Source: Planctomycetota bacterium
Lineage (GTDB): Bacteria; Planctomycetota; UBA1135; UBA2386
Direction: 5' to 3'
Assembly: GCA_019636245.1 (NCBI GenBank)
Contig: JAHBXX010000007.1
Span: 12,796 to 76,795, forward strand
DNA length: 64,000 bases
Both the position numbers and the translations under genes were made by a program. The notes under the pieces were generated by a model. That model worked only from the letters and a program-made list of their open reading frames with translations, ran no database searches and was not told where the DNA came from. Position 1 is the first letter of the stretch. Each line of letters begins with the position of its first letter. Positions 1 to 54,418 of the stretch are shown here, in pieces.

Positions 1-382
1 GGAACAGGCCGGTGAGCCAGTAGCGTTCGGCGTACTCCGGGCGGGAGAAGAACCAGGCCAGCAACGGTGCCAGGGCGCAGAGCAGGCCGCTGATCACGAG
101 GCTGCGCAGCACGCGCACGGTGAACACCGTGTCCAGGTAGCGCCGTTCGGCGCCGCGCGACGACGAGATCGTCGACTGCTCGCCCATGAACATCGTCAAC
201 GACTCGACGACGCCGATGCCGGTCAGCACGATCAGGAACAGGCTGACGTCCTCCTTGGCGATCGTGTGGGCGATCACGATCGGCGCGACCAGCGCGACGA
301 TGCGCTGGCCGCCGACGCCGAGGAACTGCCACCAGAGTCCGTGCAGCGTCTTCCGGCGCAGGTCGAGTGGCGGCGCGCTCAT
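1..382 (-). CDS. Wzx/MATE-like polysaccharide flippase, N-terminal fragment; the gene continues beyond the left edge
   Basis: Not in the ORF track because there is no stop inside the window. Hand translation of the minus strand from the ATG at 382-380 gives MSAPPLDLRRKTLHGLWWQFLGVGGQRIVALVAPIVIAHTIAKEDVSLFLIVLTGIGVVESLTMFMGEQ... This shows consecutive hydrophobic helices with near-uniform G/C third positions. The start overlaps the stop of the upstream asnB-like gene as ATGA (379-382). The family call is by resemblance to Wzx N-termini only. Confidence 0.5.
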   Translation of the reverse strand, partial: MSAPPLDLRRKTLHGLWWQFLGVGGQRIVALVAPIVIAHTIAKEDVSLFLIVLTGIGVVESLTMFMGEQSTISSSRGAERRYLDTVFTVRVLRSLVISGLLCALAPLLAWFFSRPEYAERYWLTGLF

Positions 383-2259
383 GGCCGCGCGCCGGCGGCG
401 GCGGCGGCGCCGCTGCGGCAGAACACGCGGTGCCAGGCGTCGACCACCAGCAGCGAGTGCAGCGTGAGGGCGTTGTCGCGGGCCGCCTCGGGCGTGGCGA
501 GCAGCGACTGCAGCCACGGTCGCGGCAGCGCGCCGGCGGCGAACGTGCCGGCGCCCAGCAGGCGCTCGCGCATCGCCGGCAGCTGGTCGGGACCGAGCCA
601 GGCGGCGACGGAGTTCGGGAAGCCCAGCTTGCGCCGCCCGGCGACCTCGGCTGGCAGGTAGCGCGCGGCGAGCCGGCGCAGCATGCGCTTGTTCTCGTGC
701 GCGCCGCCGTACTTGTGGCGGCCGTGCACGGCGAGGGCGAACTCGGCGACCCGGTGGTCGAGGAACGGCACGCGGCCCTCGATCGACGCGCCCATGGTCG
801 TGCGGTCGAGCAGGCTCAGCAGCTGGTGCGGCAGGTAGGTCGTCGCATCGACGCACAGCTGCTGGTTGCGCGGGTCGAGGTGCGCGCCGTCGACGAAGGC
901 CTGGGCGACCTCCTCGAGGTGGTCGCGCCGCACCAGCGGCTGCAGGGCCGCGCGGTCCGCCGGCCGCAGGTGCGTCATCGCCAGGGCGTGCCAGGGCAGG
1001 CGGGTGTGGCCGAAGGCGCGCAGCGCCTGCCGCACGGCGGGCGGATGCCGGTTGCCCGCCAGCCGGCCGCCGAGGCGGTCGCCGAACGCCAGGTAGAGCA
1101 GCCGGCAGGCCTGCTGGCGCGCCGACAGGCGGTAGTGCCCGTAGCCGGCGAACAGCTCGTCGGCGCCGCTGCCGGCCAGCAGCACCTTGACGTGCGCCGC
1201 CGCGGCACGGGCGACCAGCAGGGCGGGATAGAACGCCGGGTCGGCCACCGGTTCGTCGTTGAAGAACGTGGTCTCGTCGAGGTCGGCGAGGAAGTCGCCG
1301 GCCGGCGCCGACAGTTCCATCTGCTCGATGCCCAACTGGCGCGCGGTGCGCCGCGCGCAGGCCAGTTCGCCGGGATCGGTGTCCGGGAAGGCGATCGTGT
1401 AGGCGCGGACCCGGGCGTCGCCCTGGTGCGCGTAGTGGGCGATCAGGCCGGAGTCGAGGCCGCCCGACAGGCTGATGCCGATCGGCACGTCGGCCATCAG
1501 CTGCAGCCGCGTCGCGTCGGCCAGCAGCGCGTCCAGTTCGTCGAGCGCCTCGCCGTCGCGCGGCGGCCGCCGGTCGGCCAGCCGCCACCAGCGCTCGCGC
1601 TGCGGCGGCGCGCCGTCGCGCAGCAGCAGCCGTTCGCCGGGCAGCAGCTTCTCGACGCCGCGGCACAGCGTCGCCCGGCCCGGCACGTAGAACAGCTCCA
1701 GGAACGGCACCAGCTGCGCTTCGTCGACCGCCGGCGGCACCAGACCGCTCGCGAACAGCGCCTTGAGCTCGCTGCCGAACACGACCGCCCGCGGCGTCGC
1801 CGCCACGTACAGCGGCTTGATCCCGAGGCGGTCGCGGTAGAGCCGGCAGCTCTGGTCGCGGCGATCGAGCACGCAGATCGCGAACATGCCGTTGCAGAGG
1901 TCGACGAAGCCCGGTCCGTAGCGCTCGTAGAGGTGCGGCAGCACGGCGGCGTCGGAGCCGGTCGCGACCTCGACGCCGTGTTCGCGCCGCAGGCGCTGGC
2001 GCAGCTCGAGGTGGTTGTAGACCTCGCCGTTGAGGAACACCTGGATCGAGCCGTCGGCGTTCTGCACCGGCTGGTCGCCGGTCACCAGGTCGACGATCGC
2101 GAGCCGGCGGAAGCCGACGGCGGCGAACGGCTCCACCAGCACGCTCTGCGCGTCGGGCCCACGATGGGCGATCGACGCCGCCATCGCCGCGGCGCGCGCG
2201 GCAAGGTCCTCGGGCGAAGCGAAGGGTACGAGGGGGAAGATCCCGGCGAAGCCGCACAT
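379..2259 (-). CDS. asnB: Asparagine synthase (glutamine-hydrolysing) family amidotransferase, 626 aa
   Basis: Lies inside ORF 379..2637(-). The internal Met gives N-terminus MCGFAGIF (Ntn-amidotransferase Cys2). Also has an SLSGGLDS PP-loop, the LLAGSGADELFAGY motif and a full-length AsnB layout. The 126 codons upstream in the ORF are Arg/Pro-rich junk. Confidence 0.9.
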   Translation of the reverse strand: MCGFAGIFPLVPFASPEDLAARAAAMAASIAHRGPDAQSVLVEPFAAVGFRRLAIVDLVTGDQPVQNADGSIQVFLNGEVYNHLELRQRLRREHGVEVATGSDAAVLPHLYERYGPGFVDLCNGMFAICVLDRRDQSCRLYRDRLGIKPLYVAATPRAVVFGSELKALFASGLVPPAVDEAQLVPFLELFYVPGRATLCRGVEKLLPGERLLLRDGAPPQRERWWRLADRRPPRDGEALDELDALLADATRLQLMADVPIGISLSGGLDSGLIAHYAHQGDARVRAYTIAFPDTDPGELACARRTARQLGIEQMELSAPAGDFLADLDETTFFNDEPVADPAFYPALLVARAAAAHVKVLLAGSGADELFAGYGHYRLSARQQACRLLYLAFGDRLGGRLAGNRHPPAVRQALRAFGHTRLPWHALAMTHLRPADRAALQPLVRRDHLEEVAQAFVDGAHLDPRNQQLCVDATTYLPHQLLSLLDRTTMGASIEGRVPFLDHRVAEFALAVHGRHKYGGAHENKRMLRRLAARYLPAEVAGRRKLGFPNSVAAWLGPDQLPAMRERLLGAGTFAAGALPRPWLQSLLATPEAARDNALTLHSLLVVDAWHRVFCRSGAAAAAGARP

Positions 2260-5823: not shown

Positions 5824-6858
5824 TCAGGCCGGCAGCACGAACTCGAGCCGCAGGTCGCCGTTGGCTTCCCGCTGGGCCCAGGCCCGGCCGCCGTGGCCGA
5901 CCACGATCGTCCTGGCCAGGAACGGCCCCAGGCCGAGGCCCGGCGTGCGCAGGGCGCGGTTGGGCTGGAAGGGCGCGAAGGTCTGGCCGGCGTCCAGGGC
6001 CTGCACGGCGGCGCCGCCGACCGTCAGCTGCAGGCGACGGGCCGCCGGCAGCGCAGCGAGTTCGAGATGGCTCCGGGCACCGAGACCGGCGAGGTCGTCG
6101 GCGAACTGCACCAGCGCCGACACGGCCGCCTGCAACTGCTCGGGGTCGCCCGGGACGGCGTGCGGTCCCGGGGCGATGGCGAGCGTGGCGGTGGCGCGGC
6201 CGCCGCGCCTGGCCGCGACGGCGGTGGCGAGCAGCGCAGCGAGGTCGACGGACTCGCGGCGGGCGGGACCGTGGGCCGCCTCGGCGACCAGCCGCAGGCG
6301 GTCGACGGCGGCCCGCACCCGCTGCATGCCTTCCAGCGCGGCCTCCACCTGGTCGCGCGCGGCGGCGTCGCGCGTCGCCTCGAGGGTGGCGCGCAACAGC
6401 TGCAGATGTCCGGCGGCGAACAGCAACGGGTTGTTCGTCTCGTCGGCGACGCCGCGGGCGAGGTCGAGCAGCGCCTCCGGCCGCAGCCGGGGACCGCCAT
6501 GCCGTGCGGCTTCGACGGCCGCGGCCAGGTGCTCGGGCGGGCACGGACGGGCCAGGCACTCGGCGCCGAGCGTTGCGGCGAGGGCCGCGTGCTGGCGTTC
6601 GCCTGCCGCATCCGTCAGCACCACGATACCGACCAGCGGCCAGAGGCCCTGGTGGAACCGCAGCGCGCCGACCTCCTCGGCGGCGTCCGGCCCGAAGGCC
6701 ACGGCGAGCAGTTCGGGCTGGAACGACAGCAGCGGCACGCCGCCCGCGCGCAGGGACGGCCAGTGGCGCACCTCGGGCGGGCTCGGCAAGGCGGCCAGGT
6801 CGGCGAGCAGGCGGTCGTCGATCGGGCCGACGACGGCGATTCGGACGGGCCGGTCCAT
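5824..6858 (-). CDS. Receiver-like domain fused to a histidine-kinase-like (DHp + HATPase_c) domain with degenerate catalytic boxes
   Basis: ORF 5824..6876(-). The ATG at 6858 gives MDRPVRIAVVG. C-terminal G2-box-like GLGLGPFLARTIVVGHGG and overall HK layout. The H-box reads VADETNNPLL (no His where SHELRTPL has it), and the N-box region ALVQFADDL lacks Asn. Confidence 0.6.
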   Translation of the reverse strand: MDRPVRIAVVGPIDDRLLADLAALPSPPEVRHWPSLRAGGVPLLSFQPELLAVAFGPDAAEEVGALRFHQGLWPLVGIVVLTDAAGERQHAALAATLGAECLARPCPPEHLAAAVEAARHGGPRLRPEALLDLARGVADETNNPLLFAAGHLQLLRATLEATRDAAARDQVEAALEGMQRVRAAVDRLRLVAEAAHGPARRESVDLAALLATAVAARRGGRATATLAIAPGPHAVPGDPEQLQAAVSALVQFADDLAGLGARSHLELAALPAARRLQLTVGGAAVQALDAGQTFAPFQPNRALRTPGLGLGPFLARTIVVGHGGRAWAQREANGDLRLEFVLPA

Positions 6859-6991
6859 GGCGCAGCGGCGCGGCACTCCCGAACGGACGCCGCAAGTTCG
6901 TTGGCGACAAGGTATCCCGTCCGCCGTCCGGTGTCACCATAGGCGCTGCGGCTCCAGCCCAGGTGGTCGTTGCGTCGATAGCACGGCCGCC

Positions 6992-7442: not shown

Positions 7443-8480
7443 ATGGCAGGTCAGTCCGTGAGCGAGCCGGGTGCACAACCGTCGGAACCGCAGCCCGTGG
7501 CGCCGGCCCCGGCAGCCCCCCGGGCGCGCCCGGTCGTCAGCGTCGTCGTGCCGATCTACAACGAGCGCGAGAACGTCGAGGCGCTGCACGAGGCGCTGAG
7601 CTACGCGATGGAGCAGCTGGGCCGACCCTATGAGATCGTGCTCGTCGACGACGGCAGCCGGGACGGCACGCGCGACGTGCTGCGCGCCCTCGCGGCCGCG
7701 GACGCGCACCTGCGCCTGATCCTGTTCCGCCGCAACTACGGCCAGACGGCGGCGATGGCGGCCGGCTTCGCCGCCTGCCGCGGCCGCGTCATCGTGTCGA
7801 TGGACGGCGACCTGCAGAACGACCCGGCCGACATCGGACGGCTGGTGCAGAAGCTCGAACAGGGCTACGACGTCGTCTGCGGCTGGCGGCGGCACCGGCA
7901 GGACCGGGTGGCGACACGCCTGCTGCCGAGCCGCATCGCCAACATCCTGATCGCGCGCGTGACCGGCGCCCGCATCCACGACACCGGCTGCTCGCTGAAG
8001 GCCTACCGTGGCTGGGTGGTGCGCAGCCTCGTGCTCTACTCGGACATGCACCGGTTCCTGGCGGCGCTCGGCGTCGGTCTCGGGGCCCGCATCGCCGAAC
8101 TGCCGGTGCGCCACCACCCGCGGCGCGCGGGCAAGTCCAAGTACGGCCTCGGTCGGGTGTTCCGCGTGCTCGCCGACCTGGTCGGCATCAAGATGCTGAT
8201 CCAGTTCGCGGCCCATCCGATCCGCTGGTTCACGCTGCTGTCGCTGCCGCTCTTCCTGCTGTCGCCGATGATGTTCGTGCTCGGCTTCGTCAAGGCCACG
8301 CGACACCAGGGCTGGGTGTGGTTCGGCGACTACGACATGGCGGCCGTGGCCGCCGGTGCGGTGGCGCTGCTCACCGCGGCGAACGTGTTCCTGCTCGGCT
8401 TCCTCGCCGAACTGCAGGTCAAGGTGTCGAAGTTCTTCCGGCAGCGCATCTCGATCACGGCCCGCGAGGCGTCCCGATGA
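7443..8480 (+). CDS. Family 2 glycosyltransferase, polyprenyl-phosphate sugar synthase type (DPM1/GtrB/ArnC-like), with C-terminal TM helices
   Basis: ORF 7443..8480(+), 345 aa. Intact motifs VVPIYNE, LVDDGSRDGT, NYGQTAA and SMDGDLQNDP (DXD). Two C-terminal hydrophobic helices as in GtrB. Confidence 0.85.
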   Translation: MAGQSVSEPGAQPSEPQPVAPAPAAPRARPVVSVVVPIYNERENVEALHEALSYAMEQLGRPYEIVLVDDGSRDGTRDVLRALAAADAHLRLILFRRNYGQTAAMAAGFAACRGRVIVSMDGDLQNDPADIGRLVQKLEQGYDVVCGWRRHRQDRVATRLLPSRIANILIARVTGARIHDTGCSLKAYRGWVVRSLVLYSDMHRFLAALGVGLGARIAELPVRHHPRRAGKSKYGLGRVFRVLADLVGIKMLIQFAAHPIRWFTLLSLPLFLLSPMMFVLGFVKATRHQGWVWFGDYDMAAVAAGAVALLTAANVFLLGFLAELQVKVSKFFRQRISITAREASR

Positions 8481-10600
8481 ACGGTCCGCTGGTCTCGGTG
8501 GTCGTCGCCATCAGCGGGCCGGAAGCGCAGCCGCGCACCGTCGTCGAGGGCATCGGCAAGGCGCTGCACGCGGCCGGCTACCGCACCGAGTTCGTGGTCG
8601 TGCTGGACGGGCCGGCCGGCCGTTTCGGCGACGAGCTGCGCGAACTGGCGGCGCGTTGGACGCTGCACGTCGTGCAGCTCGAGGGCGGCGGCCTCGGCGA
8701 GTCGATCGCGCTGTCGGCCGGCGTGGCCAAGGCCCGCGGCGAGTACATCGTCAACGCGCCGCCGTACCTGCAGGTGGAGCCGGCCGAGATCGCCAAGGTC
8801 GTGGCGGCGCTGGAAGCCGGCGCCGACTGCGTCGCGACCTGGCGGCGGTCGCGCGTCGACCCGTGGCTGAACCAGCTGCAATCGAAGCTGTTCAACTGGC
8901 TGCTGCGGCTGATCATGAACGCGCCGTTCCACGACCTGAACTCCGGCACGCGCGGCTTCCGCCGCCACGTGCTCGAGGAGGTGGCGGTCTACGGCGAGCT
9001 CTACCGGTTCGTGCCGGTGCTGGCACGCCGCCAGGGCTTCCGCGTCGTCGAGGTCGAGGTGCGCCATCGCGAGGAGAAGGGCCGCGCCGGCTTCTACGGC
9101 ATCGGCGTCTACCTGCGGCGCCTGCTCGACATCCTGGCGATCACGTTCCTGACGCGGTTCACCCAGCGACCGCTGCGCTTCTTCGGCTACCTGGGTTTCG
9201 GCGCGATCGCCGTCGGCGCCCCGGTGGCGATGTGGTACCTGATCGAACGCCTGACCGTCGAGGGCGCGTCGCTGTCCGACAAGCCGGGCTTCGTCGTCGG
9301 CGCCATCCTGGCGGCGTTCGGCGTGCAGTTGATCGGCTTCGGCCTGATCGGCGAGATCATCATCTTCACGCAGTCGCCGAACCTGCGCGACTACAAGATC
9401 GAGGCCACGATCGAAGGCGGCGCCCAGACGGCGGCGCGGCCCGCCGGCGAAGCGGGCGCCGGCCAGGGCGCGCCCCCAGGTGCCGCGCCCGCGGCGGTGG
9501 CGCCGGCGGCGCCGGCCGAGCCCGAGCTGCCGCTGCGCGTGCGCGCGCTGCTGCCGGGCGAAGACTCGCGCTGGGACGCCTACGTCAGCCGCCATCCGCT
9601 CGGCACGCACTTCCACCGCAGCGGCTGGTCGCGCGTCGTTTCCGAGACCTTCCACCACGCGCCGCACCATCTGGTCGTCGAGCAGGGACGCCGCTGGCTG
9701 GGGGTGCTGCCGCTGTTCCTCGCCCGGAGCCCGTTCCTGGGGCGCAACCTGATCAGCGTGCCGTACGCCGTCTACGGCGGCGTGCTCGGCGACCACGAGG
9801 CGGCGCAGCGGGCCCTGATCGACCATGCGGCGGAGCTCGGCCGCGAACTCGGGGTCGGCTACGTCGAACTGCGGCACCTCGAGCCGCGTCCGGGCGAGCG
9901 GCTGCGGTCGCCGCTCTACGTGACGTTCCGCTGCGAACTGCCGAGCGATCCGGACGACGTGATGGCCCGCATCCCGAAGAAGGCCCGGGCCGAGGTCCGC
10001 TGCGCCCGCGACCCGGCCATGCCGGCCGTGGCCGGCAAGCGGCGCGAGTCGTTCGGCATCCGCGTCACCCCCGACGGCTCGGTGGAGGAGCTGTTCACCC
10101 TGTTCGCCGCCAACAAGCGCCGCCTCGGTTCGCCGTCGCTGCCCGCCCGCTGGTTCCAGGGGCTGGTCGACGAGTTCGGCAAGGCCGTCGTCATCCACCG
10201 CGCCGTCGAGCCCGGCGGGCGCACGCTCGCCGCGGTGATGTCCTTCTGCTTCAAGGACACCGTCTACGCCTACTACTCCGGTTCGCTCGACGACGTCGAA
10301 CGCACCGGCGTCAACAACTGGATCTACTGCGCGATCATGGAGTGGGCCGTGGCCCAGGGTTACCGGCGGTTCGACTTCGGCCGCAGCCGCATCGACTCGG
10401 GGCCGGCGCGCTTCAAGAAGAACATGGGCTTCCAGGCCGAGCCGCTGCACTACGAGTACGTGATGCTCGGCCGCCACGCCCACCTGCCGGACTTCCACCC
10501 CAGCAACCCGCGGCTCGATCTGCCGCGGCGCGCCTGGTCGCGCCTGCCGTTCTTCCTGACCAACTTCCTCGGCGCGCACCTGTCGCGCTACCTGCCGTGA
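8477..10600 (+). CDS. Fusion protein (707 aa): degenerate GT2-like domain + TM helices + FemAB-family (PEP-CTERM-locus type) aminoacyltransferase-like domain
   Basis: The internal ATG of ORF 8318..10600(+) at codon 54 overlaps the upstream stop as ATGA (8477-8480). The N-terminal half parallels the upstream GT2, but the motifs read VVAISGPE, VVLDGPAGRF and VNAPPYLQVEP. An Ala/Pro/Gly linker follows. The C-terminal half reads RWDAYV...HFHRSGW...LPLFLARSPFLGRNLISVPYAVYGGVL...YVELRH...FDFGRSRIDSGPARFKKNMGFQAEPLHYEY, which matches my recollection of FemAB-like proteins of exosortase/EPS loci. Confidence 0.8.
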   Translation: MNGPLVSVVVAISGPEAQPRTVVEGIGKALHAAGYRTEFVVVLDGPAGRFGDELRELAARWTLHVVQLEGGGLGESIALSAGVAKARGEYIVNAPPYLQVEPAEIAKVVAALEAGADCVATWRRSRVDPWLNQLQSKLFNWLLRLIMNAPFHDLNSGTRGFRRHVLEEVAVYGELYRFVPVLARRQGFRVVEVEVRHREEKGRAGFYGIGVYLRRLLDILAITFLTRFTQRPLRFFGYLGFGAIAVGAPVAMWYLIERLTVEGASLSDKPGFVVGAILAAFGVQLIGFGLIGEIIIFTQSPNLRDYKIEATIEGGAQTAARPAGEAGAGQGAPPGAAPAAVAPAAPAEPELPLRVRALLPGEDSRWDAYVSRHPLGTHFHRSGWSRVVSETFHHAPHHLVVEQGRRWLGVLPLFLARSPFLGRNLISVPYAVYGGVLGDHEAAQRALIDHAAELGRELGVGYVELRHLEPRPGERLRSPLYVTFRCELPSDPDDVMARIPKKARAEVRCARDPAMPAVAGKRRESFGIRVTPDGSVEELFTLFAANKRRLGSPSLPARWFQGLVDEFGKAVVIHRAVEPGGRTLAAVMSFCFKDTVYAYYSGSLDDVERTGVNNWIYCAIMEWAVAQGYRRFDFGRSRIDSGPARFKKNMGFQAEPLHYEYVMLGRHAHLPDFHPSNPRLDLPRRAWSRLPFFLTNFLGAHLSRYLP

Positions 10601-10851
10601 CGACGACGAAATCCGCTGCAACCGGCGGTCGCGGGCCCGCGCCGGTCGAGCCCACGCGCTGGTCCCTCGGCCTGGTCGGTTTCTACCTCAGCTGCGCCGG
10701 CGTCGCGCTCGGCGCCACGTTCGCCGCGTCGGGCTACTTGTTCTTCGGCTCGGTCGGCTGGCTGGTCTTCGGCAGCGTGCTGTCGCTCGTCTGCTGCGTC
10801 ACCTGCTTCCTGTCGCTGCAGGCGGCGCGCAAGCCGCCGGCGCCGCGCTGA
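10597..10851 (+). CDS. Hypothetical small membrane protein (84 aa, 2 predicted TM helices)
   Basis: The GTG at 10597 overlaps the FemAB-fusion stop as GTGA. Translation is VTTTKSAATGG...WSLGLVGFYLSCAGVALGATFAASGYLFFGSVGWLVFGSVLSLVCCVTCFLSL. G/C third positions are high. The ORF track shows it only as the tail of shadow ORF 8356..10851. Confidence 0.45.
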   Translation: MTTTKSAATGGRGPAPVEPTRWSLGLVGFYLSCAGVALGATFAASGYLFFGSVGWLVFGSVLSLVCCVTCFLSLQAARKPPAPR

Positions 10852-11415
10852 TCAGCGCCCGGCCAGCAGCCAGTCGACCGCCGCCGCGAGATCCGCTGCC
10901 TCGTGGTCGGGCGTGAAGCCGGCGCTGCGCAGGCGTTCGCGTTCGGCCGCCACCGGCTTGCCGCTGCGCACGTGGATCGTGGTCAGCGGCAGGCCGCGGG
11001 CCGGCAGCAGGTCGCGGGCGCTGTCGCCGATCAGCACGCTGCCCGCGAAGTCGACGCCGAGCAGGTCGTGGGCCTGGTGCAGCAGGCCGGGCGCCGGCTT
11101 GCGGCAGGTGCAGGCGCCGCCGTAGCCGTTGCCGGCGCCGACGTCGGGGTGGTGCGGGCAGTGCAGCCACGCCAGCGGCAGCCCGCCGAGCCGCTGCTGC
11201 AGCACCGCGTGGATGCGGGCGAGTCCGGCCTCGCCGAGGAAGCCGCGGGCGATGCCGCTCTGGTTGGTGACGACGACGAGCCGGAAGCCGGCGGCGTCCA
11301 GGCGGTGCAGAGCCTCGGCGGCGCCCGGCAGCACGTCGAGTTCGGCCGGCGACCGCACGAAGTCGACTTCGCGGTTCAGCGTGCCGTCGCGGTCGAGGAA
11401 CGCCGCCCGGGTCAC
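10852..11415 (-). CDS. gmhB: D-glycero-D-manno-heptose 1,7-bisphosphate phosphatase (HAD-IIIA)
   Basis: Lies inside ORF 10852..11625(-). The GTG at 11415 gives VTRAAFLDRDGTLN (DxDGT). Also VVTNQSGIARG, the Zn site CPHHP...CTCRKP and GDSARD. The start overlaps the upstream stop as GTGA. Confidence 0.8.
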   Translation of the reverse strand: MTRAAFLDRDGTLNREVDFVRSPAELDVLPGAAEALHRLDAAGFRLVVVTNQSGIARGFLGEAGLARIHAVLQQRLGGLPLAWLHCPHHPDVGAGNGYGGACTCRKPAPGLLHQAHDLLGVDFAGSVLIGDSARDLLPARGLPLTTIHVRSGKPVAAERERLRSAGFTPDHEAADLAAAVDWLLAGR

Positions 11416-11882
11416 TGCGGCGGGGCCTCGCGGGCGCCGGCGGTGCCCGCGGCGCGCGCGGCCAGGAGTTCGAAGCCGAGCAGCGGTTCGTCCTCGCGGT
11501 AGAGCTTGACGTAGACTTCGCCGGGCACCATCGCCCCGCGCACCGCGAACGGGAACACGAAGTCGCCGAAGGTCCAGAAGAACGGCAGCGGCGGCATCAC
11601 CGGGTCGTAGGCGCCGTCGATCCACTTCGAGGTGTAGCCCTCGGTGTACTGGTGGAAGCGCCGGACGGCGGGCCGATGGCCGGCGAGCCGTAGCTCGAGC
11701 ACGTGGTCGCGGCCGAAGCTGCCGCCGATCTGCAGTGCCGCCGGGGTCGTGTGGCCGGTGTCGATGCCGTCGATCAGGATGCGGGCGCCAGGCGGCTCGC
11801 TGGTGACCACGACCTGGGACTTGCTGGTGAACCAGGTGCAGGCGCTGGCGGCGAGCAGGCTCAGCACGGCGAACGGGCGCAT
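11412..11882 (-). CDS. PEGA-domain lipoprotein, 156 aa
   Basis: These are the last 156 codons of shadow ORF 11412..15707(-). Signal peptide plus lipobox is MRPFAVLSLLAASAC. The PEGA signature is VVVTSEPPGARILIDGIDTGHTTPAAL. Confidence 0.7.
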   Translation of the reverse strand: MRPFAVLSLLAASACTWFTSKSQVVVTSEPPGARILIDGIDTGHTTPAALQIGGSFGRDHVLELRLAGHRPAVRRFHQYTEGYTSKWIDGAYDPVMPPLPFFWTFGDFVFPFAVRGAMVPGEVYVKLYREDEPLLGFELLAARAAGTAGAREAPPQ

Positions 11883-15668: not shown

Positions 15669-15711
15669 GGCGCGCCGGGCCGGCGCCGCGCACTCCGGTG
15701 CGACCACCCGG

Positions 15712-16266
15712 TCAGCGCGCGGCGATGCGCTCGCCGGTGGCGAAGAACACGCCGCCCTTGCTGTGGTGGATCGTGCGCCTGCCGGCGGCCGGGAATCGCC
15801 ACTCGCCCGCGGCCCACAGTTCGTCGTCGGCCCATGCCGCCACGCACTCGAGCACGAACAGGTCGTGCGCCGACTGCAGCGCCGGCTCGGGGAGCACCCG
15901 GCACTCGAGCCAGCAGGCGCAGCCGGTGACCAGCGGCGCCGCGACCTTGGCCCCGGCCTCGGTGGCGATGCCGAAGCGCTCGAACTTGTCGCCGTCGCGG
16001 CCCGAGTTCGAGCCGACCGCGTAGGTGAGTCCGACCTGCGCCGTCGTCGGCGCCTGCAGCGCGCATTCGCCGGCCGCCTCGAGCAGTTCGCGGGTGAAGG
16101 TCCCGGCGGCGACGACCGCTGCGAACCGGGGCGGCTCGAAGTCGAGCGGCATCACCCAGGCGGCGGCCATCACGTTGCGGCGTGGGCCGTGCCGGGTCGT
16201 GACCAGCGTGGTCGGGCCGTGGTTGAGGAGCCGATGGGCGTGGCGCAGGGGGACGTCGATGCGCAT
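15712..16266 (-). CDS. Flavin reductase-like FMN-binding split-barrel protein, 184 aa
   Basis: These are the last 184 codons of shadow ORF 15712..18165(-). Sequence reads MRIDVPLRHAHRLLNHGPTTLVTT...NVMAAAWVMPLDFEPP...GSNSGRDGDKFERFG, typical of the flavin reductase domain family. Confidence 0.75.
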   Translation of the reverse strand: MRIDVPLRHAHRLLNHGPTTLVTTRHGPRRNVMAAAWVMPLDFEPPRFAAVVAAGTFTRELLEAAGECALQAPTTAQVGLTYAVGSNSGRDGDKFERFGIATEAGAKVAAPLVTGCACWLECRVLPEPALQSAHDLFVLECVAAWADDELWAAGEWRFPAAGRRTIHHSKGGVFFATGERIAAR

Positions 16267-16440
16267 GCGGGTGTGGGGGCGGCGGCGGCGCGGAGCGTAG
16301 CCGTGCGGCGGCCGGGGGCGACCGTCGCCCGCGGCCCGAGGCGCCGATCGGTCGTGCCGAGACCGGCCGCGGCGGCGGTCGACGGCGGGCCGTCGGTCCC
16401 GGGCGGGGCGCCGGGCTCGCCTTCGCCGTTGGCATGCGGT

Positions 16441-18057
16441 ATGCCTCGCGCAGCGGAGACAGCCCTGGCCCGATCCGAGCGACTCACCGATGCGGCCGCG
16501 GCCGGCGCCACGGCGTTCACGGGCTGGCAATGGATGGCGCTGCTGGCCGCCGCCGCCGCCGCGGCCGCCCTGCGCCTGCACGGACTCGGCGACTGGTCGG
16601 TCTGGGTCGACGAGGCGCACACGTGGCGCGATGCGACGATGCCGCTCGCCGGCGAGAGCGGCTTCCTGCGCAGCGACCGGGCGCTCTACCCGCTGACCTT
16701 CCTGGCCGTGCGGGGCTTGCTCGCGCTCGGCTGGGTGGGCGCCGACGAGTACTCCCTGCGGCTGCCGTTCGCGCTGGTGGGCATCCTCACGATTCCGGTC
16801 CTTGCGCTCGGCGGTCGCCGCCTGGTCGGCGCCCGTGCCGCCGTGCTGGCGGCTTGGTTCCTCGCCCTGAACCCCTGGCACGTCTACTGGAGCCAGAACG
16901 CGCGCGGCTACGTGCTGACCTGCTTCTTCGCCGTCGTGGCCAGCAACCGGGCGATGGCCTACGCCGCCACGCGGCGGGGGTTCGACCTGGCCGCAGCGCT
17001 GGCGGCGATCGCCCTCGGATCCTGCTCGCATCCGACGGCGCTGCTGCTGGGCGCGGCGGTGCTGGGCTTCGTGCTGCTGCGCCGCGTCGGCCGTCTGCAC
17101 CGCCGTGCGCTCGGCTGGCTCCTGGTCGGCGCCGTCGCGGCGACCGTCGGCGTGCCGCTGGCCCTCGCGGCCTGGTCGCCGTTCCAGGGCTTCCTGCGGG
17201 CGAAGGACGACCCGTCGCTGCTGCACTTCCTGCAGACGACGGCCTTCTTCTTCCGGCCGCTGCTGCTGCTGCTCGCCGCCGTGGGGCTGGTGTTCGCGGC
17301 GCGGCGGCTCGGGCGCGATCGGGCGCTCCTGCTCGGCTGCCTGGCCGTGGTGCCGTTCGTGCTGCTGCTGGCGATCGGCGGGCAGCTCGCCAAGGTGACG
17401 GCGCGCTATGCGATCTGCACGCTGCCCGTGCTGACCTGGCTGGCCGCGCTGGCCTGCACGCAGGTCGGCGAACTCGCGACCGCCGGCGCGCCGCGTCGCT
17501 GGCTGCGCCGGTGGTGGTTCGTGTTGCCGTTGCCGCTGCTGCTGGCGGCCGACTTCGGTCCGCAGCTGGCGGCGTACTACACGTCGCAGCACGGTCAGCG
17601 CGGCCGCTGGCGCGAGGCGCTGGAGTTCGTGCAGCAGCGCAGCGGCGGCGCCGGCCTGCGCGTGCTCACGGTCAACGAGCCGACGGTGACGTTCTATCTG
17701 CGGCCTGACCACTGGGCCGCCGTCGGCGGCGATCCGCGGCCCGCGGTCGTGGTCGACGCCCTGCTCGACTGGAAGCTGGACGGCAGGGACGCGCAGGGCG
17801 TGCGGCGCCACGAGCCGGGGGCGGCGAACCACCTCCGGTGGCACGTGGCCGAGGCGCGGCAGCAAGGGGCGCGCTGCGCCGTGGTCGTGACCTGGCCCGA
17901 GTTCGAGGAGGTCGACCGGGGCCTCGCTCCGCCGGTCGACGAGCCCGGCGCGTTGGGCCGCGCGCTGGCGGCCGGGTTCGAGCTGGCGCTGCACCTGCCC
18001 TGCTGGGTCGGGCCCAAGGACGAGGGCATCTACGTGTTCCTGCCGCGCGCCGAGTGA
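16441..18057 (+). CDS. GT-C fold glycosyltransferase (ArnT/PMT family 39-like) with a C-terminal soluble domain, 538 aa
   Basis: The internal ATG of ORF 15199..18057(+) begins the gene. About 11 hydrophobic helices. The first-loop acidic motif is VWVDEAHTW, and LALNPWHVYWSQNARGY is present. The last ~170 aa are hydrophilic. Confidence 0.7.
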   Translation: MPRAAETALARSERLTDAAAAGATAFTGWQWMALLAAAAAAAALRLHGLGDWSVWVDEAHTWRDATMPLAGESGFLRSDRALYPLTFLAVRGLLALGWVGADEYSLRLPFALVGILTIPVLALGGRRLVGARAAVLAAWFLALNPWHVYWSQNARGYVLTCFFAVVASNRAMAYAATRRGFDLAAALAAIALGSCSHPTALLLGAAVLGFVLLRRVGRLHRRALGWLLVGAVAATVGVPLALAAWSPFQGFLRAKDDPSLLHFLQTTAFFFRPLLLLLAAVGLVFAARRLGRDRALLLGCLAVVPFVLLLAIGGQLAKVTARYAICTLPVLTWLAALACTQVGELATAGAPRRWLRRWWFVLPLPLLLAADFGPQLAAYYTSQHGQRGRWREALEFVQQRSGGAGLRVLTVNEPTVTFYLRPDHWAAVGGDPRPAVVVDALLDWKLDGRDAQGVRRHEPGAANHLRWHVAEARQQGARCAVVVTWPEFEEVDRGLAPPVDEPGALGRALAAGFELALHLPCWVGPKDEGIYVFLPRAE

Positions 18058-31289: not shown

Positions 31290-32339
31290 ATGGAGTTCCC
31301 CGCCTGGGACCCGGTGCTGTTCGACATCCCGGGGCTGCCGATCGACATCCGCTGGTACGGGCTGATGTACGTGGTCGGGTTCCTGTGCGCCCAGCCGATC
31401 CTGGTGCGCCTGGCGCGGACGGGCTTCCTGCCGGTGCGGCCCGAGGTGGCTCCCGACCTGATCTTCTACTGCGTATTCGGCGTGATGCTGGGCGGCCGCC
31501 TGGGTTACGCGCTGTTCTACCAGCACGACCTGTTGCACCCGCTGGAGTTCCTGAAGGTGTGGAACGGCGGCCTGGCCTTCCACGGCGGGCTCGGCGGCGT
31601 CGCCGTCGCGATCTGGCTGTTCTGCCGCAAGCACAAGGTGGGCTGGCTGCGGGTCGGCGACGCGTGCGCCCTGGCCGTGACCCCCGGCATCCTGGCGGTG
31701 CGGATCGCCAACTTCATCAACGGGGAGCTGTACGGCCGGGTCACCGGTGCGGGAGTGGGCTGGGCGATGCAGTTCCCGACCGACCCGCGGGCGCTGCAAC
31801 TGCTGGGCATCGCCGACCAGTGGACGATGCGCGACCGGGAGCTGTGCATCCAGGTGGCGTTCGGCAAGCGCGCCTTCGCCGACGTGCGCGACCGGCTCAG
31901 CACCGTGGATGCCTACGGCCGCTCGATCGACTGGGCGGCCATCGCGCCGCGGCTCGACTGGGCGCGCGTGCGGGCGGCGACCGATGTCGATGGCCAGCCG
32001 CTGGTGCCGTACCGCCATCCCTCCCAGCTCTACGAGGCGCTGGGCGAAGGCCTGTTGCTCGGCCTCGTGCTGTTCGGCCTCTACGCGTGGACGCGCCGGC
32101 GGCCCTGGCGGCCCGGCCGCTACGGCGTGGTGTTCCTGCTCGGCTATGCCGCGGTGCGGTCGTCGCTCGAACTGGTGCGCGAACCCGATGCCTGGCTCGG
32201 CGAGGTGCTGCCGGGGCTGACCATGGGCCAGATCCTCAGTGGCGGCCTCGCCCTGGGCGCGCTCGCCATGCTGTGCTGGCCGCAGCCACGGCAGGTCGTT
32301 CCGGCCGGACCGGGTGACACCCCGACGGCGGCGGAATAA
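31290..32339 (+). CDS. lgt: Prolipoprotein diacylglyceryl transferase
   Basis: ORF 31290..32339(+), 349 aa. Motifs are IRWYGLMYVVGF, FHGGLGGV, IANFINGELYGR and HPSQLYEAL. An insertion of about 70 aa lies between the last two motifs. Confidence 0.9.
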   Translation: MEFPAWDPVLFDIPGLPIDIRWYGLMYVVGFLCAQPILVRLARTGFLPVRPEVAPDLIFYCVFGVMLGGRLGYALFYQHDLLHPLEFLKVWNGGLAFHGGLGGVAVAIWLFCRKHKVGWLRVGDACALAVTPGILAVRIANFINGELYGRVTGAGVGWAMQFPTDPRALQLLGIADQWTMRDRELCIQVAFGKRAFADVRDRLSTVDAYGRSIDWAAIAPRLDWARVRAATDVDGQPLVPYRHPSQLYEALGEGLLLGLVLFGLYAWTRRRPWRPGRYGVVFLLGYAAVRSSLELVREPDAWLGEVLPGLTMGQILSGGLALGALAMLCWPQPRQVVPAGPGDTPTAAE

Positions 32340-32400
32340 GGTGGGGCGCTGCGGTGTCCTGGGCCTCGGCCGAGCCCGCCGCTGCTCCGAGTTCCGCCCC

Positions 32401-35304
32401 ATGACGAACCGATTCCTCGGCGCCCTCGGCGCCTGCTTCCTCGGCCTCGCGGCTGGCTGCGACAACGTCGGGCGCGCCTTCGACCCGATCATCGATCCGG
32501 GCCCCCCCGGCGGGCCGGGCACTTCGAACATCGAGGTGGTGCCGATCGGCGGCGACGTGCGCGACGGACGCCCCAAGGTTCGGGCGGCCTTCCCCAGCGG
32601 CAGCGGCTGGCCCAGCGTGGTGCCGGTCGTGGTCGAGTTCACGGAGAGCGTCAACCGCAGCACCGTCCTGCCGACCTCGCCGACCGGCGGCGACGGCCGC
32701 ATCGTGCTGCGGGCGCGTGGCACCACCCAGGTGCTGCCCTGCCAGTACGACTTCCTCGCCGCCAACCGTGTCCTGGTGATGCGGCCGGTCACCGCGCTGC
32801 CGAACACCAACGCCCCGACCTACCAGGTCGTGCTGCTGCCCGACGCCCGCGATGCCGATGGCGCCAGGTTCGACGTTCCCACCGGCGGCACCGTGCTGAC
32901 CGAGTTCCAGGTCAACCAGGCCGAGTCGTTCGCCGACGGCCGCATCCTGACGACCTATCCGCGCGACAACGGCCGCGACGCGACCCGCGAGACCGACTAC
33001 TTCGTGTTCTTCGACCGGCCGGCGAACGAGGCCTCGGTGACGACGACCAACCTGCGGCTGCGGCGCCGCGGCGGGACCGACCTGGTCGGCCAGCGCACGT
33101 TCCCGTTGTCGCTGGTGGGCGTGACCGACGGGCGTGTGCTGCGGTTCCGGCCCGAGAACCGCCTGCTGGCGACGACGTGGCACGAACTGGTCGTCGACGA
33201 CACGATCACCTTCGGCACCAGCGGCAAGCTGGACTTCCGCGGCCGCACGCCGTTCGCCAGCTTCCAGACGGTCGGGCCGGCGGCGCCGGCGGGGGTCGTG
33301 CTCGGCAACCCGACGCCGGCCACGTTCGTCAACAAGATCAACCGCGCCAATGCCGGCGCCGCGGTGTTGCACGTCACGACCGCCGCCGACACCGAGGCCG
33401 GCGACCGCATCCGCGGCCGCATCTACGGCAGCGAGGCCAGCACCGCGAGCAACACCGCCGACATCGGCTACGTGGAGCGCATCGTCACCGTGCCGGCGGC
33501 AGGGACCCAGAGCGTGGTGCTCGACTTCAGCGGGCGGCTCGGCACCCTGACGAAGCCCTCGTTCGACGACGGGCCGCTGACCTTCGCGGTGCAGACGCAG
33601 CGCGGCAGCCAGCAGAGCGGCTTCGTGCACAACGATGCCACGGACGCGGCGCTGTTCGACATCACGTTGCCGACACTGCGGCAGGCCGGGCCGCCGAGCG
33701 TCGGCTCGGCCTTCGACGTCGCGATCGATCAGGAGTACCTGGCCTTCTACGGCACCGCCAGCGAACCCGTCGGCGAGGTGCTGCTCACCGATGGCGGACC
33801 CGAGGTCGGTCTGTTCGCCGCCGCCGCCGACGGCACCTTCCTGATGCGGCCGCTGCGCTTGGGGCGGCTGACCGGACCGCGGTCGTACTCGCTGACGCTG
33901 CGCGACCGCGCCGGCAACCTGGCGACCGGCGCCGTTTCCGGCTCGATCAGGCAGCGGGGCGTGGTCACCGGCGCCGTGGCCGGCGAACTCACGGTCGAGG
34001 CCTACGACCACGCCACGCTCGCGCCGGTGGCGAACGCCAAGGTCCTCGTCGATCCGGGCGCCCCGTCGGCGCCGGCCGTGAACCAGCTGGTCGGCACGAC
34101 CGGCGCCGACGGACGGGTGGTGTTCCAGGGTCTGGCGGGCAGCGAACACACGGTGACCGTCGTGCGGTCCGGTTTCGATCTGGTGACCGTCTACCGCAGT
34201 GGCGCGGCGTTCCTGTCGCTGCCGCTGCGGCCGCAGACCGCCGCCACGGCGACGCTGCAGGGCAACGTGGCGTTCACGGTGATCCCGGGCTCGACGGCGT
34301 TGGTCGGCTGCACCTCGCTCGACGATGCGAACGACTTCGCCGTGGGCACGACGCTCGCGGCGCCAACGACGATCCCGCCGACGCCGATCCTGCCCAATCG
34401 CCCGGCGATCGTCACCGCCTTCGCCGGCGCCTTCGAACCCAGCGCGCGGCCGACGTTCAGCTTCCAGGGCTTCCAATCGCTGGGTGCGGACCTGGCGACG
34501 CCGACGGCGCCGCTGGCGCCGCCGGCCGCCGGCGGAACGTCGAACCAGAACGTGATCCTGCTGCCGAGCGTCGGCCAGATCGGCTTCCTGCTCGGTCCCT
34601 ACACGGTCGACTTCGGTCTCGCGGCCGGACTCGACGTCGGCAACCTGATCGGCGGGCGACCGGTCGTGCGCGTCACCTCGTCGCTGCAGGGTTTCGGCGG
34701 CCAGCTGTTGATGGGCGTGGGCTTCGCGCAGGCGAGTGCCGGGACGAGCTTCGACATCGACGTGAACTGGACCCTGCCGGGCTTCATCGGCCTGACCGGG
34801 TTCGGCGCCGAACTGGCGACCTGGGGCCTCAGCGAGGCCCGCGACGTCGGCGGTCGCATCAGCCGGCACCGCGTGCTGGTGGACGTGCTCACCGGCCTGC
34901 TCCAGGGCGCTTTCCTGCCGCCGCAGTCGATCCCGGTGGTGACGGCGCCCGGCCTGCCCTTCGTCGGCGCGCCGCTGGCGGAGTACGCCGACGTGCTCGA
35001 TCCGGCGGCGACGGTCGGCGGCGTGGCCGTCGTCGACGTGGTCGCGACCGACGCCAATGGCCGTCGCTGGACGATGCTGGTCGCCGACACCGACGCCGCT
35101 GGCGGCACCGAATCCGTACAGTTCCCCGACCTTGCGCAGGCCGGCACGCCAGGACTGGCGACCGGCAACTGGACGGTGCGTGCCGAGTCGCGGCTCTGGC
35201 TGTCGCTGTCGAGCGCCGGCTTCGACGACTGCGCGCTGGCCGAACGGCGCCACGCCGAGATCCTCTACTCGCGTGGCAGCGCGGTGACGTTCGTCGTGCA
35301 GTGA
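32401..35304 (+). CDS. Large surface lipoprotein with Ig-like (SbsA/Big_5-like) and carboxypeptidase-regulatory-like domains, 967 aa
   Basis: The internal ATG of ORF 32239..35304(+) at codon 55 begins the gene. The lipobox is FLGLAAGC. Segments such as RVLVMRPVTALPNTNAPTYQVVLL and GTTGADGRVVFQGLAGSEHTVTVVRSGF support the domain calls. Confidence 0.65.
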   Translation: MTNRFLGALGACFLGLAAGCDNVGRAFDPIIDPGPPGGPGTSNIEVVPIGGDVRDGRPKVRAAFPSGSGWPSVVPVVVEFTESVNRSTVLPTSPTGGDGRIVLRARGTTQVLPCQYDFLAANRVLVMRPVTALPNTNAPTYQVVLLPDARDADGARFDVPTGGTVLTEFQVNQAESFADGRILTTYPRDNGRDATRETDYFVFFDRPANEASVTTTNLRLRRRGGTDLVGQRTFPLSLVGVTDGRVLRFRPENRLLATTWHELVVDDTITFGTSGKLDFRGRTPFASFQTVGPAAPAGVVLGNPTPATFVNKINRANAGAAVLHVTTAADTEAGDRIRGRIYGSEASTASNTADIGYVERIVTVPAAGTQSVVLDFSGRLGTLTKPSFDDGPLTFAVQTQRGSQQSGFVHNDATDAALFDITLPTLRQAGPPSVGSAFDVAIDQEYLAFYGTASEPVGEVLLTDGGPEVGLFAAAADGTFLMRPLRLGRLTGPRSYSLTLRDRAGNLATGAVSGSIRQRGVVTGAVAGELTVEAYDHATLAPVANAKVLVDPGAPSAPAVNQLVGTTGADGRVVFQGLAGSEHTVTVVRSGFDLVTVYRSGAAFLSLPLRPQTAATATLQGNVAFTVIPGSTALVGCTSLDDANDFAVGTTLAAPTTIPPTPILPNRPAIVTAFAGAFEPSARPTFSFQGFQSLGADLATPTAPLAPPAAGGTSNQNVILLPSVGQIGFLLGPYTVDFGLAAGLDVGNLIGGRPVVRVTSSLQGFGGQLLMGVGFAQASAGTSFDIDVNWTLPGFIGLTGFGAELATWGLSEARDVGGRISRHRVLVDVLTGLLQGAFLPPQSIPVVTAPGLPFVGAPLAEYADVLDPAATVGGVAVVDVVATDANGRRWTMLVADTDAAGGTESVQFPDLAQAGTPGLATGNWTVRAESRLWLSLSSAGFDDCALAERRHAEILYSRGSAVTFVVQ

Positions 35305-40642: not shown

Positions 40643-40697
40643 GCCGCCCCATCGCAACATTCGCAACGAGAACTTCCGGGGAGCAAGGCGGAGAGCA

Positions 40698-54249: not shown

Positions 54250-54418
54250 CGGCGGCACGATGCCGGCCGCTGCGGAGTGGCGCAAGCATGCGGGGCGCCA
54301 ATGCGGTGGGCCGGAGAACGCGCCAGCACCGGTCGTCGCGGGCGACATCGGGCGCAGCGCCATCGCCGCTGCACGGGTAGACTGCTCGGCTCCCTGCCCG
54401 CCCGTCCACGCCGCCAAC

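Follow-up and report, generated by a model that had tools for sequence, protein, structure and literature searches.

Two groups of described enzymes come closest to the locus analyzed here, polyprenyl-phosphate sugar synthases of the ArnC, GtrB and DPMS kind and aminoacyl transferases of the FemX and VimA kind. The three-component Arn and Gtr systems consist of a family 2 glycosyltransferase (GT2), followed by flipping and then by a GT-C enzyme. In ArnC, the catalytic base is proposed to be D100, the metal is bound by D102 and Q104, contacts to the donor come from D48, N77 and R205, and undecaprenyl phosphate is bound by R128, R131 and R137; both ArnC and GtrB are tetramers, joined by transmembrane (TM) bundles and C-terminal contacts (PMC12690121). 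Among the aminoacyl transferases, Weissella FemX acts on UDP-MurNAc-pentapeptide and uses K305, preceded by F304, as its catalytic residue, while the related enzyme Orf11 draws on Gly-tRNA to attach glycine to streptothrisamine, an amino sugar compound (PMC12945691). VimA of Porphyromonas gingivalis matches the TIGR03019 model and has been proposed, on genetic evidence, to catalyze amino-acid transfer in the Wbp/Vim pathway, where the AsnB-like WbpS amidates uronic acid, VimE is proposed to deacetylate a sugar and VimA then determines which residue, Ser or Gly, the freed amine receives (PMC7468200, the only paper in the searchable literature that mentions TIGR03019). Here we report that three consecutive genes (g1 to g3) of a Planctomycetota bacterium, located in a stretch of 64,000 nucleotides (contig JAHBXX010000007.1, positions 12,796 to 76,795; hereafter the window), join candidates of both kinds: a predicted synthase is followed by a fusion of its putative dead paralog (pseudo-GT2) with a FemX/VimA-type domain, and then by a small membrane protein. 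The genes and the parts of the fusion are as follows.

7443-8480, plus strand: g1, 345 aa, predicted intact polyprenyl-phosphate glycosyltransferase (GT2) of the ArnC/GtrB type
8477-10600, plus strand: g2, 707-aa fusion, its start overlapping the g1 stop (ATGA)
8477-9391, plus strand: predicted pseudo-GT2 domain, g2 residues 1-305, with a GT-A fold, a juxtamembrane helix and two TM helices
8759-8767, plus strand: P95-P96-Y97 of g2 in the DXD position (D100-A-D102 in ArnC, DGD in g1), from alignments
9401-9532, plus strand: predicted flexible linker rich in Ala, Pro, Gly and Glu, g2 residues 309-352, from composition and a low predicted local distance difference test score (pLDDT)
9533-10600, plus strand: predicted FemX/VimA-type tandem-GNAT domain (TIGR03019), g2 residues 353-707, from profile and fold matches
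10412-10417, plus strand: F646-K647 of g2, the invariant Phe-Lys (columns F295/K296 in an alignment of 63 sequences)
10597-10851, plus strand: g3, 84 aa, two predicted TM helices, its start overlapping the g2 stop (GTGA)

An earlier note on this DNA had pointed to the ATGA overlap between g1 and g2 (8477-8480) and the GTGA overlap between g2 and g3 (10597-10600); the gene calls agree with both, and the motif strings that it quoted were all found in the translations. The GC content of the window is 73%, and one and the same frame keeps a GC content at third codon positions (GC3) of about 0.95 over the whole of 8477-10600, the Ala/Pro/Gly linker included. A scan of the window for tRNA genes and Rfam families found none. 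The description of g1 as an intact polyprenyl-phosphate GT2 was borne out by its match to PF00535 (E = 2e-33) and by the presence of every catalytic motif (PIYNE, DDGS, NYGQ, DGDLQNDP and GKSKYG), and its C-terminal TM helices are predicted at residues 262-286 and 298-326. The best NCBIfam match was ArnC with 182 bits, and because this value falls far below the equivalog cutoff of 529, the sugar specificity of ArnC cannot be assigned to g1; its predicted membership in the ArnC/GtrB-type class of polyprenyl-phosphate GT2 enzymes is an assignment at family level.

The N-terminal half of g2 is 33% identical to g1 over 239 aa (E = 2e-35) and matches PF00535 with 36 bits only. In HMMER searches, g2 residues 6-295 aligned to the solved structure of ArnC (9hwj) with an E value of 6e-28, and GtrB and DPMS were also matched. 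An AlphaFold 2 (AF2) model of g2, built on an alignment of 148 sequences, had a pLDDT of 90.8 and a predicted TM-score (pTM) of 0.81. When the N-terminal half of this model was compared with the Protein Data Bank (PDB) using Foldseek, ArnC, GtrB and DPMS were the top matches, with target TM-scores of 0.61-0.72 for ArnC and GtrB. A hydropathy scan placed the TM helices of the domain at residues 238-256 and 270-298, in agreement with the AF2 secondary structure. Hence, the claim of the earlier note that this half is colinear with g1, including the TM helices, and that it has lost the DXD holds. Within the motifs that the note called altered, the second Asp of DDGS (D48 in ArnC) and the Gln of DXDLQ (Q104) are kept. 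The note had also placed A-P-P in the DXD position; the alignment puts P95-P96-Y97 there instead.

To describe the family as a whole, the columns equivalent to ArnC residues were tabulated in 285 relatives (160 standalone and 125 fused). D100 is replaced by Pro in 265 and D102 by Tyr in 270 of the 285 members, D47 is changed to Phe or Leu (Leu in g2) and N77 to Pro, Ala or Gly (Gly in g2), while R205 has become Glu and S210-K211 Gly-Phe, in g2 as well. Of the tested donor-side residues (D47/D48, N77, R205 and S-K-Y) D48 alone is kept. Residues D48, G49, G79, Q104, R128, R131, D133, D158, R164 and H202 are retained near-universally, the equivalents of R128, R131, D133, D158 and R164 being present in 94-100% of members; R137 is replaced by Asn, and an Arg adjoins that position in most standalone members. 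As judged from these columns, the site has lost its half for donor and metal and has kept the acceptor half, which would bind polyprenyl phosphate, and sequence and model together identify the N-terminal half of g2 as the presumed catalytically dead paralog of g1. It appears to share with g1, ArnC, GtrB and DPMS the fold and the membrane architecture, but g1 has all catalytic motifs, while a domain with P-P-Y for DXD and most donor contacts lost could not work as these enzymes do.

When the N-terminal half was used as a query, hundreds of standalone proteins of about 330 aa were retrieved at 45-50% identity, with the same replacement motif, for which the consensus in standalone proteins is TSPQYVQxDP. 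A scan of metagenomes with a pseudo-GT2 profile added 80 further loci, and a DXD was found in none of the 79 metagenome copies in which it was sought. The family has conserved motifs of its own (WRxxRVDPWLNR, FHDLNC, VRHLKE and KPLRFFG), and because of these and of the fixed P-x-Y we consider the dead GT2 to be a widespread, constrained family of putative pseudoenzymes, usually encoded as a separate protein of about 330 aa. The possibility of a decaying, pseudogene-like domain was rejected, since the family is strongly conserved and has its own invariant residues. No description of a dedicated dead paralog for Arn or Gtr systems was found in the literature.

In the C-terminal half of g2, residues 365-707 scored 308 bits against TIGR03019 (cutoff 260.35), covering positions 2-330 of the 330 in the model, and the half also matched PF13480 and PF04339, in keeping with the complete FemAB-family domain that the earlier note had described; the score against PF02388 (FemAB) was 13 bits and under the cutoff. 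In the Foldseek comparison with PDB, Sbb17/Sba18 came first (target TM-score up to 0.81), followed by S. aureus and Weissella FemX (0.67-0.70) and then FemA, whereas a profile of 63 relatives matched S. aureus FemX with an E value of 6e-9, Sba18/Sbb17 with about 5e-8 (Sba18 with 4e-8) and Weissella FemX with 3e-6. Sbb17/Sba18, the closest solved structures, act on an amino sugar compound and are described as 'aminoacyl-tRNA-dependent peptide synthase complexed with streptothrisamine'. The invariant F646-K647 aligns with 'RFK' of Sba18/Sbb17, and we infer that it is the counterpart of F304-K305 in Weissella FemX. The domain thus appears to have in common with FemX, FemA, FemB, Orf11, Sba18 and Sbb17 the tandem-GNAT fold and the invariant Phe-Lys, and it lacks a coiled-coil insertion, like Weissella FemX. 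It differs from them in that their identity to g2 is 14-20%, that they are soluble and not fused to a membrane domain, and that they act on lipid II, on UDP-MurNAc-pentapeptide or on an intermediate of an antibiotic. Since the two TM helices of g2 would, as in ArnC, return the modeled chain to the cytoplasm, the FemX-like domain could reach aminoacyl-tRNA, which is its predicted donor.

VimA of P. gingivalis and Tannerella forsythia shares with this domain a match to TIGR03019, on which the likeness between the two rests, but VimA is a stand-alone protein in the context of lipopolysaccharide and the type IX secretion system, whereas the g2 domain is tethered to an apparently dead lipid-sugar synthase within a GT2/GT-C cluster. 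As in the Wbp/Vim pathway, AsnB-like and CE4 deacetylase genes are found near related modules (loci L026, L027, L074 and L079), and AsnB is encoded in the window; in contrast to that pathway, no deacetylase was present nearby among the window open reading frames (ORFs) scanned. MprF, a fusion of an aminoacyl-phosphatidylglycerol synthase with a flippase, offers an analogy only: it, too, would place a cytoplasmic transferase dependent on aminoacyl-tRNA on a membrane domain that handles a lipid, and one pseudo-GT2 relative carries the MprF-type TM domain PF03706, but the transferase fold family and the membrane domain of MprF are unrelated to those of g2, and its acceptor is phosphatidylglycerol rather than a polyprenyl-linked sugar. 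The earlier note had assigned the FemAB domain to the kind found in exosortase/PEP-CTERM loci. The score above the TIGR03019 cutoff agrees with this, but neither exosortase nor PEP-CTERM elements turned up in the window: a regular-expression search of the 64 kb found no PEP-CTERM tails, and no exosortase was present among the annotated window ORFs or in the flanks of the related loci examined. With this outcome, and with housekeeping genes as the wider neighbors, the window does not look like a PEP-CTERM/exosortase locus.

That g2 is a genuine fusion is indicated by the coding signal, unbroken in one frame across the linker, and by its recurrence. The full-length protein, identical to MBX3462448.1, has homologs in more than 120 protein clusters (66-100% identity) that come from independent assemblies, nearly all of them 700-760 aa long and containing both domains, and fusions of the g2 type occur in 20 species-representative genomes at 45-83% identity. 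Because the coding signal is continuous and the fusion recurs in independent assemblies, g2 is neither a frameshift nor a mis-assembly. The linker has a pLDDT below 50 at residues 309-336 of the AF2 model and is 35-138 aa long (median 58) in 120 fused homologs. In a search of 1.84 billion representatives at 50% identity, about four fusions were found among the best-scoring 150 listed, the other 146 being separate proteins of about 330-360 aa that match one half or the other. The fusion is therefore real but rare. Since most closer relatives encode the pseudo-GT2 and the FemAB-like protein as neighboring separate genes, g2 reads as a Rosetta-stone fusion of two genes that are adjacent in most relatives.

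In a neighbor-joining tree of the pseudo-GT2 domain, the window clade formed one fused group with L015, L016 and the protein P0243. Another fused protein, P0244 (675 aa), grouped with the unfused locus L025, and as its halves are 62% and 58% identical to the two separate, overlapping genes of L025 (7024-9041) and only about 40% identical to g2, it is probably a second, independent fusion, although it is known from a single contig, where an indel could join genes that overlap by 4 bp. A different combination was seen in P0341 of L027 (8001-9986), in which a pseudo-GT2, with P-A-Y for DXD, and the flippase TM domain PF03706 of the MprF type form a single protein. Three further candidates were discarded: P0261, from a low-GC organism, contains two intact GT2 domains in tandem rather than a GT2 and a pseudo-GT2, whereas P0279 and P0366 are longer FemAB proteins with unrelated N-terminal extensions. 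The earlier note knew of no described fusion of this type. No paper on the fusion, on a dead GtrB/ArnC paralog or on TIGR03019 in Planctomycetota was indeed found in the searchable literature, but homologs of g2 from metagenome-assembled genomes (MAGs) of Planctomycetota are already annotated in databases, under no other name than 'FemAB family PEP-CTERM system-associated protein'. Each part is of a kind already known (ArnC/GtrB, FemX/VimA and GT-C). What is absent from the searchable literature is their combination, in which a conserved P-x-Y pseudo-GT2 is always accompanied by an active GT2 and, in Planctomycetota, adjoins a VimA-like enzyme or is fused to it.

The gene neighborhoods of the relatives showed which partner is constant. 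Among the loci added by the metagenome scan, all 57 with enough flank have an intact GT2 (DGD or DAD, with SKY) immediately before the pseudo-GT2, and an ATGA or GTGA overlap joins the two genes in 14 related loci besides the window. A FemAB-like gene follows downstream in 6/6 of the metagenome loci whose pseudo-GT2 is at least 60% identical and in 25/28 at 42-59% (31/34 at 42% or more). Three deep-branching loci pair an intact GT2 with a pseudo-GT2 and have no FemAB nearby: in L089 and L102 a PMT/PMT_2 GT-C gene directly follows the pseudo-GT2 (from about 6930), and in L091 it follows after a gap of about 900 bp (from 7808); L089 also carries an ABC-2/Wzt transporter pair. These three loci suggest that the dead paralog predates the link to FemAB or is independent of it. 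The constant partner of the pseudo-GT2 is thus the intact GT2 and not FemAB.

The commonest order among unfused loci is GT2, pseudo-GT2, FemAB, then a HAD and a PEGA gene on the minus strand and a homolog of the window PMT_2 gene. L021 and L023 have an intact GT2, a pseudo-GT2 and a separate FemAB-like gene followed by GmhB-like HAD and PEGA genes on the opposite strand; in L024 two PMT_2 (GT-C) genes directly follow FemAB; in L025 the three core genes overlap one another; and in L026 a PMT_2 gene stands between pseudo-GT2 and FemAB, and AsnB, GT4 and SIS (GmhA-like) genes are also present. According to the alignment, the first GT2 is intact and the second of the P-x-Y type in all five (L021 and L023-L026). 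The more distant L027 contains an Arn-like set composed of a DegT aminotransferase, a CE4 deacetylase with DUF3473, a FemAB-like gene, an intact GT2, a carbamoyltransferase and the pseudo-GT2-PF03706 fusion; FemAB adjoins a CE4 deacetylase there, as it does in two other distant relatives, L074 and L079. As side observations, a gene for a sigma-54-dependent activator lies within a few kb of the module in all five unfused contexts examined (L021, L023, L024, L025 and L026), and in both the window (5824-6876, minus strand) and L025 a HisKA kinase-like gene is oriented divergently to the intact GT2 gene, which is g1 in the window. Four genes of the window other than g1 to g3 have counterparts around these modules:

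10852-11415, minus strand: GmhB-like HAD-IIIA phosphatase (NF006506, 137 bits, below the cutoff of 178; TIGR01656, 106 bits, above cutoff)
11412-11882, minus strand: PEGA-domain lipoprotein-like gene (PF08308, 9e-6), a conserved neighbor
16441-18057 (start codon estimated), plus strand: PMT_2/GT-C-type membrane glycosyltransferase (PF13231, 4e-8, 33.9 bits, cutoff 26.1)
379-2259, minus strand: glutamine-hydrolyzing asparagine synthase (AsnB), passing TIGR01536, about 5 kb upstream of the module

The HAD gene is a convergent neighbor of the module that is kept in most loci. The stop of the PEGA gene overlaps the GTG start of the HAD gene at 11412-11415, a second translationally coupled pair, convergent on g3. 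The SIS (GmhA-like) gene that occupies this position in L026 hints at heptose metabolism near the module. In the window, the GT-C gene is separated from PEGA by inserted SH3, TPR and RadC genes, whereas its homolog directly follows PEGA in 19 unfused loci, and the enzyme that it encodes probably uses the lipid-linked sugar. The stretch that separates RadC from the GT-C gene (15669-16440) shows no clear coding frame, with a GC3 of about 0.72-0.74 in the GT-C frame. The window AsnB scored 358 bits against the XrtA/PEP-CTERM amidotransferase model TIGR03108 (cutoff 817), and AsnB genes adjoin the module in L026, L027 and L092. The wider window is of a housekeeping character (AsnB, MiaA, YidC, a histidine kinase, RadC and others). 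Elsewhere in it, 40575-41741 (plus strand) matches Volactin (PF25216, E = 8e-82) and is followed by a large U32 peptidase gene, and two plus-strand frames with coding-like GC3, 32221-35301 (about 1027 aa) and 54125-56254 (about 710 aa), have no Pfam match.

The third gene, g3, was described in the earlier note as a coupled mini-protein with two TM helices. The GTGA overlap, the helices, predicted at residues 24-44 and 47-78, a coding-like GC3 of 0.93 and 16 orthologs in related loci (17 sequences including that of the window, 72-97 aa, two TM helices each, with the common motif EHTRWSxGLIGFYLSCAGV) agree with that description, but the range of g3 is restricted: it is confined to the fusion clade at 62% identity or more, is absent from the 45% fusions (L015 and L016) and from unfused loci, and in L017 stands 3 kb away from g2. 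The gene is real but does not belong to the core of the module. In L010 (6948-9371), g3 is in frame with g2 in an 807-aa ORF, so that the two are either fused there or joined by an indel of the long-read assembly. Small membrane proteins activate or stabilize several polyprenyl-phosphate glycosyltransferases, namely GacJ with GacI, Rv3632 with PpgS, and DPM2/DPM3 with DPM1. Like these, g3 is a small protein with two predicted TM helices encoded right after GT2 genes, but no sequence similarity to them was detected, g3 having no family match in Pfam or NCBIfam, and g3 occurs in part of the fusion clade only.

Tentatively, and with somewhat less than even confidence, we hypothesize that the three genes form the core of an Arn/Gtr-like envelope modification which proceeds via a lipid-linked sugar and includes a VimA-like aminoacylation. 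In gene content, the cluster resembles the three-component systems of GT2, flipping and GT-C. In the proposed sequence of events, g1 would use a nucleotide sugar to load polyprenyl phosphate with a sugar at the cytoplasmic side of the membrane; the pseudo-GT2 domain would sit beside g1, probably in a mixed oligomer given that ArnC and GtrB are tetramers, and/or would hold the polyprenyl-phosphate-sugar product; the FemX/VimA-type domain, on its flexible linker, would move an amino acid from aminoacyl-tRNA to the sugar; and the decorated lipid-linked sugar would then be flipped and passed by the nearby GT-C (PMT_2) to an envelope acceptor. That a FemX-like domain may act on a lipid-linked sugar is a coherent idea, because the polyprenyl-phosphate arginines and the juxtamembrane and TM helices are kept, the closest folds aminoacylate an amino sugar, and VimA offers a precedent. 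A heteromer with g1, or a hand-off role, appears at least as likely for the pseudo-GT2 as the simple presentation of a substrate to FemAB, since the intact GT2 is its partner in 57/57 loci and FemAB is missing from most deep-branching members. A wider proposal, which we regard as doubtful, is that P-x-Y proteins are a conserved and hitherto unrecognized fourth component of such systems, a non-catalytic paralog that would form mixed oligomers with the synthase and capture, hand off or even translocate the polyprenyl-phosphate sugar, and that in Planctomycetota would recruit a VimA/FemX enzyme to aminoacylate a polyprenyl-phosphate monosaccharide in a tRNA-dependent manner, which would be the first case known. 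The envelope would thereby gain a decoration bearing an amino acid, with a purpose analogous to that of 4-amino-4-deoxy-L-arabinose (L-Ara4N), D-alanylation or lysyl-phosphatidylglycerol. Several observations weigh against the aminoacylation of a lipid-linked sugar by this module. FemAB is nearby in only 6/26 pseudo-GT2 members below 42% identity, and because the family extends past the association with FemAB, the primary role of the pseudo-GT2 may not involve it. No deacetylase, aminotransferase or other source of an amine was found among the window ORFs scanned near g1 to g3, and no flippase was identified in the window. Finally, the VimA precedent is itself presumptive, both in the amino-acid donor and in the stage, that of a nucleotide sugar or of a lipid-linked one, at which VimA would meet its substrate.

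The stage of the reaction is also where the first alternative departs: the FemX/VimA-like domain could aminoacylate a soluble nucleotide sugar before g1 acts, with the dead GT2 only localizing the domain by g1, so that the modified donor would be channeled onto polyprenyl phosphate. Weissella FemX works on such a compound, UDP-MurNAc-pentapeptide, the Wbp/Vim scheme puts VimA among nucleotide-sugar steps in a tentative order (PMC7468200), and the pseudo-GT2 retains the D48 and Q104 equivalents of the nucleotide side. We nevertheless judge it unlikely, as the loss of D47, N77, D100, D102, R205 and K211 makes canonical binding of a nucleoside diphosphate sugar and metal improbable, whereas the acceptor side (R128, R131, and the juxtamembrane and TM helices) is kept, and the junction of a pseudo-GT2 with an MprF-type flippase domain in L027 points to a lipid rather than a nucleotide sugar. 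The dead GT2 might, on the other hand, bind no ligand at all and be a structural subunit or anchor in a mixed tetramer with g1, so that the fusion would just concentrate a FemX-like enzyme at the membrane. The tetramers that ArnC and GtrB form through TM bundles and C-terminal contacts, the invariable company of an intact GT2 (57/57 loci) with overlapping start and stop codons, and the occurrence of the family without FemAB are all consistent with such an anchor, which is otherwise compatible with the lipid-linked pathway that we favor; but the near-invariance of R128, R131, D133, D158, R164 and Q104 and the fixed Tyr in the old metal site exceed what a passive anchor needs, and we find it quite unlikely.

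Other alternatives concern the chemistry of the C-terminal domain and the integrity of the gene. Pfam assigns the domain to Acetyltransf_6 of the GNAT family, tandem-GNAT acetyl-CoA enzymes (2wpw/2wpx, Eis-like) appear lower in the fold list, and VimA was once annotated as an acetyl-CoA transferase (PMC7468200), all of which would suit an acyl-CoA-dependent N-acyl or N-acetyl transferase. Such an activity is nonetheless improbable, given that the top fold and profile matches (Sbb17/Sba18, FemX and FemA) are all dependent on aminoacyl-tRNA, that the invariant F-K fits the FemX catalytic pair, and that a swap of VimA between species turns Ser to Gly on the sugar (PMC7468200). A peptidoglycan enzyme whose FemAB domain adds a cross-bridge residue to lipid II is suggested by S. 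aureus FemX being the best sequence-profile match in PDB (6e-9) and by some sources naming the relatives 'peptidoglycan bridge formation protein FemAB'; yet PF02388, at 13 bits, stays below its cutoff while TIGR03019 is passed, the cluster has no mur or penicillin-binding protein genes, and what is conserved beside it is a GT2 of the monophosphate type and a GT-C rather than lipid II enzymes, so that we hold this to be very improbable. An artefact of assembly or a frameshift would be conceivable in a MAG whose relatives have adjacent or 4-bp overlapping genes that one indel could join, and it may apply to the single-contig P0244. For the window clade it is refuted by the same architecture in more than 120 clusters and 20 species-representative genomes, by the dedicated linker of 35-138 aa and by the unbroken coding signal at the junction, which leaves it a negligible chance.

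Should the lipid-linked pathway be wrong, the P-x-Y proteins would still be a clear example of pseudo-glycosyltransferases that are conserved as a family and share a fixed replacement motif. If it is right, a pseudoenzyme partner, so far unnoticed under the plain annotation 'glycosyltransferase', would be added to pathways of the Arn/Gtr type, which matter for serotype conversion and for resistance to antibiotics. It would also give a testable handle on the TIGR03019/VimA family, the function of which is known only from genetics in oral Bacteroidota, and the fusion, together with the strict neighborhood by a polyprenyl-phosphate sugar synthase, would suggest the stage at which the substrate of this family is modified. 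For the organism, it would point to a glycan or lipid that carries amino acids in the envelope of planctomycetes, which is poorly understood.

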